Origin: Minisyncoccota bacterium
GTDB lineage: Bacteria; Patescibacteriota; Minisyncoccia; Phycocordibacterales; UBA2100
Direction: 5' to 3'
DNA length: 64,000 nt
Assembly (NCBI GenBank): GCA_031291875.1
Contig: JARLIE010000040.1
Span: 132,088-196,087 of the forward strand
Shown here: piece after piece, positions 18,793-37,938 of the stretch
How positions within the stretch are numbered: position 1 is the stretch's first letter
Layout of the letters: each line of letters opens with the position of its first letter
The notes under the pieces: generated by a model
Seen by the model: the letters and a program-made list of their open reading frames with translations, nothing else
What the model was told of the DNA's origin: nothing
Databases searched by the model: none
Program-made: the position numbers and the translations under genes

Positions 18793-19137
18793 CCGCAGCA
18801 CATATGGTGTTCGGAATGAGGGCGAAAAGGCGGCAACCGTAATGCGGGGGGAACCCCCACACCAAGGTGGCCGCGAAAGCGGCCTTTTTCACGCTTGAAA
18901 AAGCACGAAATCATATGTTGCTCGTTGAAAACTGAAGAGCGACACAAGAAAGAATCAAACGTTCCGTTTGGGTTATAAGTCTTTCCCGAACGGAATGCAG
19001 GAATCCGCCGTAAGGCGGGCAAAAAGAAAACATCAAGTCGCGTCTTCCTCTTGTAGGGAAGATGCGCAGTTCTCGTGAAAAAGCAGCGGTGTTTTTTCAC
19101 GAGACGTAATACGCGGTTCTCAGAATTCCTAGCGGGA

Positions 19138-22095
<2,958 letters not shown>

Positions 22096-22230
22096 CTCGA
22101 AAGGAATTGTGAGAGTCGCGTTAACGAATTGTTTTCTCTGTTTTGCCGGAATAGTGCACGCACTATTCTGCGCAAATATTTCTTGTGTCGCTCTTCGGTT
22201 TTCAGCGCAGCCGAAGTTCTTTGAATGTTT

Positions 22231-22342
22231 TGTGTTGGTGCTTCATCGGAGGGGTCACACCCGTTCTCTTTCCGAACACGGCAGTTAAGCCCTCTTGAGG
22301 CGATGGTAGTCGAAAGGCGAGAGTAGCTAGGCGCCAACACAA
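22231..22342 (+). rRNA. rrf: 5S ribosomal RNA
   Basis: Helix I pairs tgtgttggtgc with gcgccaacaca. Internal ccgaacacggcagttaagcc...gatggtagtcgaaaggcgagagtagctaggcgcc matches 5S loop C/helix IV-V conservation. Confidence 0.75.
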
Positions 22343-22404
22343 ACTATTCAAAGAATTCTCTCATTCCGTCATTTTATTCGGCAGGCAAACCTGCCGGCGG
22401 GGCA

Positions 22405-22463
22405 GTTAAGCCCTTCTGTGCTGATGGTAGTCGAAAGGCGAGAGTAGCTAGGCGCCGGGAAAA
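22405..22463 (+). repeat. direct duplicate of the 3' ~57 nt of 5S rRNA (5S fragment/pseudogene)
   Basis: gcagttaagccc.tct.gtgctgatggtagtcgaaaggcgagagtagctaggcgcc recurs ~65 nt after the complete 5S. The 5' half of 5S is missing from the second copy. Confidence 0.7.
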
Positions 22464-22465
22464 AG

Positions 22466-22948
22466 CTATTCCTCTGACTCAAGATTTATCTCGAGAGGAA
22501 TTCTGTCTACCTCAGTGAAGCCTTCTTCGCCAGCTTCTTTTATTAGAACTACAATCGTGTACTCCCCGCTATCGTCAACGGGCAAAGGAGAGAACTTACT
22601 TCGTATGCGAATACTTTTAATACCCTTTTGAATCCCAAAATTATTCGGAGGCAACTCTGCGATAGTATTGCCCTTTGGATTTACAAATTCATATTTAATC
22701 TCGAAAGCTACCGGGTCATCTATTTTTTTTGAAAATCGAGATATTATCTCGAATTCGAACGGAAATGCGTAGCCGTTTGCATTCTCGAGTCTTTTTTGTT
22801 CAAGCATTTCTTTGGTAATTTGAACCGTGAATTTCTCGATCAGATTGTTCAGGCTTAGGTTGTTTGTATCCGCACTCAATACTGAAGAGCTGCAGAGTAC
22901 GGAAAAAAGATGCCTGAGGTTTTTTGTACCGATTTCTTTAAAATTCAT
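22466..22948 (-). CDS. hypothetical protein, third gene of the toxin-antitoxin-like operon
   Basis: ATG overlaps the antitoxin stop as ATGA (translational coupling). 160 aa, AT-rich codons, no recognisable motif. Confidence 0.5.
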   Translation of the reverse strand: MNFKEIGTKNLRHLFSVLCSSSVLSADTNNLSLNNLIEKFTVQITKEMLEQKRLENANGYAFPFEFEIISRFSKKIDDPVAFEIKYEFVNPKGNTIAELPPNNFGIQKGIKSIRIRSKFSPLPVDDSGEYTIVVLIKEAGEEGFTEVDRIPLEINLESEE

Positions 22949-23382
22949 ACGCGAATGTAACTGTAACCCGTTATTGTTCCAAGCCTTTCCTTCGGGGACT
23001 CAGTATTTGCATCTGAAGATGCACTTTTGATCGACAGATCGTTTCGTTGAATAAAACTTGGAATCAATTTCTCGGAAACTTCCTGATCATTTATTGCTGT
23101 AAAGAAATTCGGATTTCCAAAACGCACTTCAAGATAGGTTTTAAAATGGTCAGCGATCTTCTTTAGTGTAGTTAAGTTCGGTAACTGAGCTCCGTTTTCC
23201 AATCGAGAAATCCCAGATTGTTTCGTGCCAATTGCTTCAGCGAGTTGCAGTTGTGTAAGATTCCTCTCAACTCTATTTCGTTCTATTTCACGACCTATCT
23301 GATAAGCAAGGTCTTGTTTAATCTCCAAATCAATGTTTGGGTTTTTTTCACGTATCTTAGTTTTGTAGGTCTTTAGGTCCAT
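22945..23382 (-). CDS. higA: XRE-family HTH antitoxin (HigA-like) with ~70-aa C-terminal extension
   Basis: HTH LTQLQLAEAIGTKQSGISRLENGAQLPNLTTLKKIADHF. Start taken at MDLKTY (ATG 23382) inside the 3' end of the toxin gene. The ORF track's upstream start at 23445 would overlap the toxin by 88 nt. Confidence 0.7.
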   Translation of the reverse strand: MDLKTYKTKIREKNPNIDLEIKQDLAYQIGREIERNRVERNLTQLQLAEAIGTKQSGISRLENGAQLPNLTTLKKIADHFKTYLEVRFGNPNFFTAINDQEVSEKLIPSFIQRNDLSIKSASSDANTESPKERLGTITGYSYIRV

Positions 23383-23743
23383 AGTTTTCAGGTATATTCT
23401 TAATTCTCTCTCGAGCAGATTTGATATGCGTTTTTGGAATATCACCGATTTTCTTTTTCACGAACCCATGTACAAGAATAATTTTGTTTCCGCGAAGACA
23501 TCCTATCAATCGGATTTTCTTTCCCTTATGTTCGATACGAAGATATAGGAGTCCATCTTGAGGGAAACGAATTTTCTCTTTTCGGAACAGTTCGTCTAAA
23601 TATCGTCCATCGAAGCCCTCTTCGAGCATTTCAGCAATTTCGAGCGCTGCAATTTCTCCGAGTGAGTCAAGGAATTCAGCTACATGACATCTTCCGCCGC
23701 CCGATTCATCTTCCCAGAACTCAATGCGGACGGTTTGTTCCAT
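23357..23743 (-). CDS. higB: Gp49-like (DUF891) HigB/RelE-superfamily toxin
   Basis: LYLRIEHKGKKIRLIGCLRGNKIILVHGFVKKKIGDIPKTHIKSARERIKNI matches the Gp49/HigB signature (...yRi.y....iillhgF.KKtqktP..ei..A..R...). Gene order toxin then HTH antitoxin is typical of higBA. Confidence 0.7.
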   Translation of the reverse strand: MEQTVRIEFWEDESGGGRCHVAEFLDSLGEIAALEIAEMLEEGFDGRYLDELFRKEKIRFPQDGLLYLRIEHKGKKIRLIGCLRGNKIILVHGFVKKKIGDIPKTHIKSARERIKNIPENYGPKDLQN

Positions 23744-23770
23744 AATCTATTAAATTCGACCATATATATT

Positions 23771-23792
23771 GATATAACATTGATGTTATATC
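23771..23792. promoter_or_regulatory. perfect 10-2-10 palindrome (GATATAACAT tg ATGTTATATC), candidate operator of the higBA-like operon
   Basis: Lies ~30 nt upstream of the toxin start codon in the AT-rich promoter region. Type II TA operons are typically autorepressed at such palindromes. Confidence 0.5.
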
Positions 23793-23857
23793 CAATTATT
23801 AAGACGGTCAAGTGTTTCCAGGCTTACAATGCTCAGTAAGTCGAGTACAATTAAAAA

Positions 23858-24640
23858 ATGACTTGGGCGACTCGTCGACGCATTGCGTACCTCACCGGCG
23901 TTTTCATTTTTTTTGCGATCGTGGTGGGCGGACCACTCGCGTACCATTTTTTGACGATTCCACCGACGTGCCACGACGGCATCCAAAACCAGGGAGAAAC
24001 AGCGATCGATGAGGGCGGTCCCTGCCTGCTTTTGAATCCAGCCGACCTGCAGCCGCAAGGTATTTTGTGGGCGCGAACGTTCCTTGTACGGCAAGGGGTC
24101 GCGGATGCGGTTGCGTACATCGACAACCCGAATCAGAATGCCGCCGTCATGCAAGTTCCGTACGAATTCACCTTGTACGACAGCAAAAACGCGCTCGTCG
24201 CCGACCTCACCGGACAGACCTTCATCATGCCTGGCGGCGTCACACCCGTCTTCGCCGGAAACATCAACGTCGGCAACCGGGTGCCGACATACGCGCAGCT
24301 CAAATTTGGCGCAGCGCTTGTATGGGAGCGAGCGATCGGATTTTCCCAAGGCATCAAAATTTCCAACCTTCAGACGACACAAAGCGCGAATTCTTCGCAA
24401 GTAACAGCGACAGTCACCGACGCATCGGTTTCGGATATTTCAAATATTATTTTCGTTGCGACGGTCTTCGATCCGGGCGGCAACGCGATCGCGACGTCGC
24501 AGACGGCGCTCCAGAAGCTCGCCGCGGGCGCGAGCGACCAGGTCTACTTCACCTGGCCCTCCGCCTTCTCGGCGACCGTTGGCAGTATCGATATTATCCC
24601 GCTTGTTCAACCTGAGCCCGATCCGAGCGCTCAGCAGTAA
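23858..24640 (+). CDS. hypothetical membrane-anchored extracytoplasmic protein
   Basis: N-terminal TM (LTGVFIFFAIVVGGPLAY), then a beta-rich domain. Sits immediately upstream of ftsW. Confidence 0.45.
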   Translation: MTWATRRRIAYLTGVFIFFAIVVGGPLAYHFLTIPPTCHDGIQNQGETAIDEGGPCLLLNPADLQPQGILWARTFLVRQGVADAVAYIDNPNQNAAVMQVPYEFTLYDSKNALVADLTGQTFIMPGGVTPVFAGNINVGNRVPTYAQLKFGAALVWERAIGFSQGIKISNLQTTQSANSSQVTATVTDASVSDISNIIFVATVFDPGGNAIATSQTALQKLAAGASDQVYFTWPSAFSATVGSIDIIPLVQPEPDPSAQQ

Positions 24641-35854: not shown

Positions 35855-36206
35855 TGGCCGACCATCGCTCCTGATGGCCTTTTCTTTGGAATCTTTGCGG
35901 TTCCAAAAGAATCGCTCAAGCATCATCTCGATGCAGAGCCTTTCAACCGAAACGTCGGCGGAGCATGGTTGAACTTTGAAAACTGAATAAAGAAGATTGT
36001 ACGCATCAAGATCGAAGCAATTCGATCGTTGGTAAGTAAACACACAAAAAAACAGTAAGTGGAAGGAAAGTATGGTATCCGAACGGATAGTTCGGATAGC
36101 ACATTCTTTTGTTCCGTCCATCCTAAGAAAGAGTAAGAAACAAATTCTAGAAGCCTCTCGTTGCCGATTCATTCGGCCGACGCTTCGAAGGTAAAATTAC
36201 TTTTAC

Positions 36207-37657
<1,451 letters not shown>

Positions 37658-37938
37658 AAAAATTGACCTTTCTGCCTTTAGTGGTGGATCGAGTCGAGTC
37701 GATTCGTGTGTCTCGATCGAGCACATGAGGGAAATGGCATTCATCCCAAAATGATGCCTGACAACTCGCAAAGACGAGTGTTTGGACGGAACAAAAGAGT
37801 GTAAATCCAAATCCAAGTACTGTGTGTGTTACAAAACAAAATAGGCCGCCCAAAGCGGTCTCTTTTGCGTTGGGCCGAACGATGCTAGGCTGAATGAGGT
37901 CACGCTCTCACCGCATAAGAGGGCAGGAGGGAACGATC

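Follow-up and report, generated by a model that had tools for sequence, protein, structure and literature searches.

In the window analysed (the whole 64-kb stretch of DNA, from a candidate-phyla (Pacebacteria) bacterium), we distinguished an AT-rich inserted islet of 1401 nt (22457..23857, without strand assignment), whose gene content is limited to three minus-strand genes encoding, in the order of transcription: (i) a Gp49/HigB1-type toxin, (ii) an HTH antitoxin extended by a C-terminal tail, and (iii) a 160-aa Ig-fold protein, with neighbouring genes overlapping one another. In our judgment there is an even chance that the islet represents a tripartite toxin-antitoxin (TA) module gained by horizontal transfer, similar to the TAC systems (toxin, tailed antitoxin, chaperone) and equipped with a different third protein. 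TAC systems are now defined by a SecB-like chaperone, and they have come to serve as a model for the conversion of a TA pair, by a third protein, into a sensor of phages.

The islet and its insertion site

The islet is located between a 5S-like fragment and a gene encoding an FxLYD-domain protein. Its GC content is 38.8% (0.388), compared with 0.538 +/- 0.024 in the other 1.4-kb windows (z = -6.3), the lowest of which has a value of 0.468. The composition of the third codon positions is also distinct, with GC3 of 0.34-0.40 for the three islet genes vs. 0.55-0.72 for ten other genes. The initial annotation had described an AT-rich segment of approximately 1.4 kb just after the 5S fragment and proposed its horizontal acquisition, and both statements are corroborated, the former by the GC values and the latter also by the comparison with relatives. 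The gene order 23S-5S-FxLYD-FtsW is kept in 50 relatives, none of which (0/50) contains matches to the toxin, the antitoxin or the third gene at this site, and therefore the three-gene module is an insertion. The deviant composition together with the empty site in the relatives supports horizontal acquisition of the islet.

The 23S rRNA gene (19133-22101, plus strand; Rfam) is followed by the 5S rRNA gene (22234..22339, plus strand; Rfam RF00001, 68.7 bits, E = 2.2e-12), with which the 23S-5S unit ends; the 16S gene (36202-37661) is unlinked to this unit. Downstream of the 5S gene there is a 56-nt partial copy of its 3' part (22401..22456, plus strand; 5S positions ~47-102), sharing 91% nucleotide sequence identity with the 5S segment 22280-22335 (blastn, E = 4e-15), and the end of this copy constitutes the left junction of the islet. 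No third copy of the 5S 3' part is present in the 64-kb window. This repeat had initially been taken for a flanking sign of insertion, a reading which we abandoned, since the islet has both 5S-derived copies on its left, and two relatives without the module (L022 and L039; ~80% identity) share the same layout, composed of the 5S gene, a spacer and the 3' fragment. The similarity of both relatives to the window ends at position 22456. The 5S repeat is older than the insertion, and its origin as an att duplication made by the insertion of the islet was rejected on the same grounds.

The islet shares several features with the islands found at RNA genes (3' ends of tRNA and tmRNA genes), i.e., (i) cargo of foreign composition placed directly 3' of a structural RNA gene, (ii) the presence of a partial 3' copy of the RNA gene, and (iii) the occurrence of different cargo in the same slot in relatives. 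Unlike these islands, it contains no integrase and is not bordered by flanking repeat copies, the repeat predating the insertion. The islet was also considered as an integrase-type island with attL/attR at the 3' end of the RNA gene, and this was dismissed because neither flanking direct repeats nor an integrase was found. No earlier description was found in the literature searched on 5S integration sites.

The toxin-antitoxin pair and the organization of the operon

The first gene (23357..23743, minus strand) encodes a 128-aa toxin of the Gp49/HigB1 type, belonging to the RelE superfamily and matching the Pfam family Gp49 (PF05973; E = 1.6e-8, 34.9 bits at a cutoff of 23.9), which also includes HigB1 of M. 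tuberculosis (PMC11980606). The toxin sequence alone gave no match against the PDB in a phmmer search, and an orthologue profile was needed: the profile of 7 toxin orthologues matches HigB of S. pneumoniae (6af3; E = 2.8e-5) and HigB1 of M. tuberculosis (7nbu/7awk; E ~0.03).

The second gene (22945..23382, minus strand), whose ATG (23382) is placed 26 nt inside the toxin ORF, encodes a 145-aa antitoxin, and the NCBI call (P0268) gives the same 145 aa. In this protein, an N-terminal segment precedes an XRE-type HTH (residues ~34-84), which is followed by a 61-aa C-terminal tail (residues 85-145; coding region 22948..23130, minus strand). The HTH_3 match (E = 3.4e-14) stops near residue 84 and does not extend into the tail. 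A word-indexed homologue search with the antitoxin retrieved 3 proteins only, and in PHROGs, PADLOC and NCBIfam it gave only generic HTH matches. The third gene (22466..22948, minus strand) starts with an ATG overlapping the antitoxin TGA (ATGA). The Gp49/HigB toxin, the XRE-HTH antitoxin with its C-terminal extension and the coupled gene for a 160-aa protein had all been recognized in the initial annotation, and these assignments are retained here, each of the features described having been located at the positions given.

A promoter-like site, distinguished by consensus matches only and composed of a -35 sequence TTGACC (23811-23806) and a -10 sequence TAACAT (ending at 23783), overlaps an imperfect palindrome of 17+17 nt (23764-23799; inverted repeat I5). 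The three genes are translationally coupled behind this one site. The region (23764..23811, minus strand) is considered a putative promoter and operator, the operator role of the palindrome being suggested by analogy with the autoregulation that type II TA operons usually show.

By protein family and gene order, the predicted toxin-antitoxin pair fits the type II TA systems of the Gp49/HigB1-HigA type. As in the two-gene Gp49(HigB)-HTH(HigA) systems (e.g., HigBA of S. pneumoniae; 6af3), a RelE-superfamily toxin is encoded upstream of an XRE-HTH antitoxin in an overlapping reading frame, with a palindrome at the promoter. The islet module differs from them in its 61-aa antitoxin tail and its conserved, coupled third gene.

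The third protein, its family and its antitoxin partners

The third protein is acidic (pI 5.0) and cytoplasmic, and its structure is confidently predicted as an Ig-like beta-sandwich (pLDDT 95.9), with no DNA-binding fold and no resemblance to enzymes or pore-forming proteins. The possibility that it is a SecB-like chaperone (PF02556 / SecB fold) was rejected on the basis of this model. The protein represents a family whose clusters at 50% identity number at least 1458 (1458 cluster representatives), and in which positions H13, C19, S22, R114 and Y130 are nearly invariant; W15 is conserved as well. Its residues 61-138 give a sub-threshold match to Pfam DUF6941 (PF22091; 16.2 bits at a gathering cutoff of 27, E = 0.014), and the DUF6941 model matches 33 of the 63 sampled family members at E <= 0.01 (best E = 4.5e-7), which suggests that the third protein belongs to a related, divergent branch. 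DUF6941 proteins are of similar length (~125-150 aa). No function of DUF6941 and no publication on it were found in the literature search, and the TA association seen for the third-protein family is not recorded in the sources searched. No match to the third protein was obtained in PHROGs, PADLOC and NCBIfam, and a pattern scan of GTDB representative genomes and IMG/VR for the close family revealed no relatives.

The third gene is placed directly 3' of an antitoxin-type gene in 17 of the 18 independent loci, at a distance of 0-38 nt or with an overlap, and the third-protein identity across independent loci ranges from 21% to 65%. The initial annotation had taken a failure of the third ORF to co-occur with the pair in relatives as a refutation of its interpretation, and the adjacency to an antitoxin-type gene in these 17 loci does not refute it. 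The toxin-antitoxin-third gene order is kept in relatives, and overlaps of start and stop codons recur. The partnering toxins represent Gp49, HicA and HigB (PF09907), as exemplified by a locus with HicA (PF07927) and a HicB/RHH-like antitoxin of 160 aa (L002), and by another with HigB_toxin (PF09907; E = 1.7e-30) and an HTH antitoxin of 219 aa (L103), each followed by the third gene. Thus, the third-gene family is found almost always directly after a tailed antitoxin, whatever the TA family. The module was also found on phage-like contigs.

All 17 antitoxins partnering the third-gene family (17/17) carry tails of 43-95 aa, and we propose the tail as a candidate docking site, or "addiction" element, with the third protein as its ligand. 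Conservation among the tails is poor, and in appearance they are closer to degenerate linear motifs than to folded domains with a regulatory role. Three patterns, all chosen post hoc, were noticed in them: [STN]-P-Y in 5 of the 10 group-A tails (one of them HicB-type), [ND]W[SA][RK][IV][FYH]xF common to four group-B tails, and a weakly enriched C-terminal hydrophobic-x-hydrophobic pattern (10/17 tails, p = 0.026). The tail of the window antitoxin is without a clean [STN]PY and contains ESPK and IPSF. These post hoc motifs are suggestive of a tail type that follows the third-protein subfamily.

The relation between tail and third gene was compared in 12 relatives of the antitoxin HTH core, all from viral contigs, in which tail-less proteins of 86-93 aa, not demonstrably antitoxins, have no third gene, while downstream of a tailed relative (142 aa) there is a gene whose product is probably SecB-like (match to PF02556 over positions 18-139 of 141, E = 8e-5).

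Comparison with TAC systems and possible roles of the third protein

In the TAC paradigm, the genes are arranged in the order T-A-C, the antitoxin ends with a variable C-terminal ChAD tail, and the TA partners are HigBA, HicAB and MqsRA (PMC5105189, PMC3581621, bioRxiv 10.1101/2024.02.24.581848). ChAD has been transplanted to an unrelated antitoxin to examine whether the dependence moves with it (PMC5105189). A third gene in a higBA-type module, initially regarded as non-standard, has its closest counterpart in these systems. The islet module shares with them (M. tuberculosis HigB1-HigA1-SecB^TA, Rv1955-57; E. coli HigBAC; CmdTAC) (i) the tricistronic T-A-C order, (ii) the Pfam family of the toxin (Gp49), in the case of M. 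tuberculosis HigB1, (iii) a variable C-terminal extension of the antitoxin (~40-60 aa or more in TAC, 61 aa here), (iv) the size of the third gene product (~150-160 aa in TAC, 160 aa here), (v) the association of one third-gene family with TA pairs of different families (Gp49/HTH, HicA/HicB-like and HigB/HTH for the islet family), and (vi) the occurrence of modules of its type on phage-like contigs. In contrast to the SecB-like third protein of TAC, that of the islet is a non-homologous Ig-fold protein; SecB itself has been described, mainly for Pseudomonadota, as a chaperone with a housekeeping role (bioRxiv 10.1101/2024.02.24.581848). Judged by its predicted proteins, the module matches the TAC architecture but lies outside the SecB-defined TAC family. 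Searches of the literature on non-SecB TAC and on CPR TA modules yielded no earlier description of the three-gene module.

We infer that the third protein binds the antitoxin tail and controls the stability of the antitoxin. In the proposed mechanism, the HTH antitoxin would neutralize a ribosome-dependent RNase toxin and repress the operon at the palindrome, and its tail would render it unstable or inactive unless bound by the Ig-fold protein, probably by addition of a tail beta-strand to the edge of the sandwich. Titration or loss of the Ig-fold protein (e.g., through a phage protein or stress) would then lead to degradation of the antitoxin, and the freed toxin would cleave mRNA and stop growth.

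It is conceivable, at somewhat below even probability for the two proposals taken jointly, that the large, undescribed DUF6941-related Ig-fold family evolved independently as a second class of "addiction" partners for tailed antitoxins, and that it replaces SecB in TAC-like abortive-infection/stress modules of CPR/Patescibacteria and their phages, where it might act as a phage sensor. If so, antitoxin "addiction" would be a general principle of design, reached by convergent evolution and not peculiar to SecB, with which the Ig-fold protein shares the kind of tailed partners and the promiscuity across toxin families. A testable function would thereby be assigned to a DUF-related family of more than 1000 sequence clusters, and a defence or stress module would be recognized in CPR bacteria, whose TA/defence biology is almost unexplored.

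The initial annotation had listed, without ranking, cargo, a second toxin, an immunity component and an accessory function as possible roles of the third gene; the evidence favours a partner linked to the tail over cargo or a second toxin. Within the tail-linked roles, it is rather unlikely that the protein acts as a negative regulator or as a sensor, i.e., an Ig-fold receptor docked on the tail, which upon a phage or stress signal would pass the antitoxin to a protease or remove it from the toxin. This reading is computationally indistinguishable from stabilization of the antitoxin, and it overlaps with it, because in the known TACs one protein is both stabilizer and sensor (bioRxiv 10.1101/2024.02.24.581848).

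An action through the tail as a co-repressor or anti-repressor, changing DNA binding and autoregulation and leaving antitoxin stability unaffected, would be in line with the position of the third gene after a DNA-binding antitoxin (HTH or RHH) and with the palindrome overlapping the promoter-like site. Third-component regulators also exist in other tripartite TA systems. The acidic character of the protein, its lack of a DNA-binding fold and the poor conservation of the tails, which look like linear motifs and not like folded domains, make this role improbable.

We consider it quite improbable that the third protein acts as another toxin or as an effector, with a bifunctional antitoxin acting through its N-terminal part against Gp49 and through its tail against the third protein. 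The near-invariant His, Cys, Ser, Arg and Tyr residues would agree with such a function, as would one locus type (L016/L017) composed of an HTH gene, the third gene and a DUF5680 gene, with no Gp49 upstream, whose structure indicates that the logic of the module may vary. However, the coupled DUF5680 gene of L016 is itself an available toxin candidate, the plain beta-sandwich is unlike enzymes or pore-forming proteins, and on 24 contigs (L100-102) the third gene is an orphan devoid of any TA partner, and thus of an antitoxin, which makes it probable that the protein alone does no harm.

Finally, the third gene is very improbable as an unrelated passenger with no functional tie to the TA pair, a reading compatible with the lack of an annotated function and with a sub-threshold DUF as the sole Pfam match, but left close to refuted by the synteny, i.e., adjacency in 17/18 loci at 21-65% identity, alongside toxins of three families and antitoxins of two folds, with repeatedly overlapping start and stop codons.

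The AT-rich islet and its three-gene operon

The window originates from a metagenome-assembled genome (MAG) of Candidatus Pacebacteria (CPR/Patescibacteria), and its antitoxin and third protein are 100% identical to the NCBI calls (locus tag P4L81_01425). The islet (22457-23857) has a GC content of 0.388, compared with 0.538 +/- 0.024 in all other 1.4-kb windows (minimum 0.468; z = -6.3), and its three genes show GC3 values of 0.34-0.40, as against 0.55-0.72 in ten other genes, which confirms the contrast with the flanks proposed in the initial annotation.

The islet carries, on the minus strand: (i) a toxin gene (23743..23357; 128 aa); (ii) an antitoxin gene (23382..22945; 145 aa), whose ATG lies 26 nt within the toxin ORF; and (iii) a third gene (22948..22466; 160 aa; predicted Ig-like beta-sandwich), whose ATG shares the sequence ATGA with the antitoxin TGA. 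The toxin matches the Pfam family Gp49 (PF05973; E = 1.6e-8, exceeding the gathering score), and a profile of 7 orthologues matches HigB of S. pneumoniae (6af3; E = 2.8e-5) and, with E of about 0.03, HigB1 of M. tuberculosis (7nbu/7awk), the toxin of a toxin-antitoxin-chaperone (TAC) system. The match of the antitoxin to HTH_3 (E = 3.4e-14) stops near residue 84 of 145, leaving a tail of 61 aa; the earlier assignment of a Gp49 toxin and an XRE-type HTH antitoxin with a C-terminal extension thus stands.

A putative sigma-70-like promoter upstream of the toxin gene (minus strand, 23811-23783; TTGACC, 17 nt, TAACAT) overlaps an imperfect palindrome of 17+17 nt (23764-23799), a common layout in autoregulated type II toxin-antitoxin (TA) operons, and an autoregulatory role may be proposed for both elements. 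Another promoter-like site (plus strand, 23823-23851) is located within the AT-rich islet edge. The first gene past the islet (23858-24640) encodes a 260-aa FxLYD-domain protein (NF038353, E = 7.4e-6) and is kept immediately 5' of FtsW/RodA in about 50 relatives.

The insertion site and the 5S rRNA repeat

Rfam models placed the 23S (19133-22101, plus strand) and 5S (22234-22339, plus strand) rRNA genes, and an unlinked 16S rRNA gene (36202-37661); the 23S-5S unit (19133-22339) and the 16S gene lie on the same strand, about 14 kb apart, with protein-coding genes between them. A 25-nt inverted repeat on both sides of the 5S gene (22217-22241 and 22331-22355) is probably a precursor processing stem, and the spacer separating this gene from its partial copy contains a GC-rich hairpin (CGGCAGG-CAAA-CCTGCCG; 22382-22399).

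Using the neighboring FtsW/RodA protein, 80 related loci were fetched from Kaiserbacteria/Paceibacterota MAGs. The 5S gene is kept upstream of FtsW in 50 of them, in the conserved order 23S-5S-FxLYD gene-FtsW, and the distance from 5S to FtsW is usually about 850-1050 nt, compared with 2311 nt in the window. A tblastn comparison with the three islet proteins gave no match in any of these 50 relatives. The deviant composition and the 50 empty sites support a lineage-specific acquisition of the islet, in agreement with the horizontal origin suggested initially. No integrase was found within the islet.

The 3' part of the 5S gene (56 nt, 22280-22335) is copied at 22401-22456 (91% identity, blastn E = 4e-15), with no third copy in the window. 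This repeat had been taken as a sign of insertion, a reading that we rejected: both copies lie on the same side of the islet, and the repeat is also present in the module-free relatives L022 and L039. The 5S gene, the spacer of about 65 nt and the 3' fragment align with these two loci at about 80% identity, up to the left islet border at position 22456. Because this arrangement is common to loci without the module, the alignments indicate that the duplication predates the insertion.

In 7 of the 50 relatives, the 3' part of the 5S gene likewise has partial copies that reach the 5S 3' end. They are located downstream of the 5S gene (window, 22280-22456; L022:5347-5582; L028; L032:962-1357; L039:4156-4383; L042:2028-2316; L073:2740-3378; L075:655-1083), two each in L032 and L075, begin between positions 37 and 68 of the 5S gene, and almost all extend to its 3' end. 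In the variable helix, the fragments of the window, L022 and L039 are closer to the L073-type 5S allele than to the resident 5S. Recombination or insertion seems to have recurred at the 5S 3' end. The slot between the 5S and FxLYD genes holds unrelated cargo in relatives (L032:1982-2665; L035:1088-1756; L069:1491-2291; L074:2114-3058; L090:381-1337) and, judging from these loci, is a variable hot spot. The cargo of L032 and L035 is a 222-227-aa protein with the motif HVINRAN...MPNHWHL, resembling a candidate RayT/IS200-type (Y1) transposase, while the remainder comprises membrane proteins and a 266-aa ORF, polysaccharide deacetylase-like by eye.

Many relatives also carry an extra 250-1300 nt within the 23S gene, at the equivalent of position 21809 (e.g., L018:1052-1571, L026:4376-4759, L039:2413-2667), which is absent from the window; their blastn alignments all break at query position 209/210. 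An rRNA intron or insertion like those reported for CPR bacteria is a possible explanation.

The third-protein family and its genomic partners

Searches of Pfam, NCBIfam, PHROGs, PADLOC and PDB sequences gave nothing significant for the third protein, whose match to DUF6941 was sub-threshold (E = 0.014; 16.2 bits vs. a cutoff of 27). A word-indexed search yielded six homologues (47-65% identity), while a profile run exhaustively against 1.84 billion cluster representatives yielded 1458 relatives at E <= 1e-3 (548 at E <= 1e-10), with lengths of 140-170 aa in nearly all matches listed. DUF6941, of which we found no mention in the literature searched, was matched at E <= 0.01 by 33 of 63 sampled family members.

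In 17 of 18 independent loci surveyed, the third gene lies directly 3' of an antitoxin-type gene, often overlapping it, and all 17 partner antitoxins have 43-95 residues past the DNA-binding domain. The partners represent three toxin families and two antitoxin folds: (i) a Gp49-type toxin with an HTH antitoxin of 131-159 aa (window, L001, L003, L004/5, L011, L012, L013/14, L098, L099 and viral contig L104); (ii) an HTH antitoxin at a contig end (L009, L015); (iii) a 160-aa HicB/RHH-like antitoxin, with HicA in L002, at a contig end in L008, and lacking any upstream hicA ORF of 40 aa or longer in L010; (iv) a HigB_toxin (PF09907, E = 1.7e-30) with a 219-aa HTH antitoxin (viral contig L103); and (v) a 136-aa HTH antitoxin, followed by a third gene (150 aa) and an overlapping, translationally coupled DUF5680 gene (150 aa; PF18931, E = 1.8e-30), with no Gp49 gene upstream (L016:2586-3902, L017). 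The DUF5680 protein may be an uncharacterized toxin located 3' of the third gene. An orphan third gene, adjoined by neither an antitoxin nor a toxin gene, is found about 360 nt downstream of lexA (L100-L102:2501-2950; 24 contigs). A functional link between the third protein and tailed antitoxins is very probable.

Just 3' of the three-gene module, L013 (3621-4686) and L004 (1800-2668) carry a SocA_Panacea-domain gene, fused with an HTH domain in L013, and then a small ORF; TA modules appear to cluster there.

Antitoxin tails and relation to TAC systems

In TAC systems, a toxin-antitoxin-chaperone operon encodes an antitoxin whose C-terminal "chaperone addiction" tail is variable, the third protein (~150-160 aa) is common to HigBA, HicAB and MqsRA systems, and phages are sensed through competition for the chaperone (PMC5105189, PMC3581621, PMC11980606, bioRxiv 10.1101/2024.02.24.581848). 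The islet module has the same gene order, an antitoxin tail and a third protein of similar size, but this protein is not SecB-like, the defining TAC feature, and the module is therefore outside the TAC family as currently defined, while we infer that it works in a TAC-like manner. The TAC layout is already known; in the literature searched, its third component is described solely as SecB-like.

The Ig-fold protein would bind the antitoxin tail and be required for antitoxin stability or activity, a model to which we give even chances. Alternatively, it could act as a destabilizing sensor or adaptor, or regulate DNA binding. A role as second toxin is disfavored by the plain fold and by the existence of orphan copies, and that of a mere passenger by the conserved synteny with antitoxin genes.

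The tails are poorly conserved, yet non-random. Of 10 non-redundant tails in the subfamily nearest the window, 5, including a HicB-type tail, contain [STN]-P-Y, a motif picked post hoc; this frequency was equalled in 0 of 20000 shuffles. The window tail contains ESPK and IPSF. Tails from four loci of a more remote subfamily (L013, L015, L016 and L099) start with [ND]W[SA][RK][IV][FYH]xF, and 10 of 17 tails end in hydrophobic-x-hydrophobic (p = 0.026). It is suggestive only that tail type may track the third-protein subfamily and not the antitoxin DNA-binding fold.

Among viral-contig relatives of the antitoxin HTH core, four putative antitoxins (86-93 aa; L105, L106, L107, L113) have neither a tail nor a third gene. 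L109-L111 (1432-2740) encode, in order, a 145-aa protein (no Pfam match at E <= 0.01; Gp49-toxin-like by eye), a 142-aa tailed HTH protein and a 158-aa protein matching SecB (PF02556; E = 8e-5, 23 bits vs. a cutoff of 26, positions 18-139 of 141), and are probably canonical TACs. One antitoxin core thus occurs in three states: tail-less without a third gene, tailed with a SecB-like protein, and tailed with a DUF6941-like protein. A serine recombinase-like gene, recognized by eye, lies immediately 3' of the L109-L111 set.
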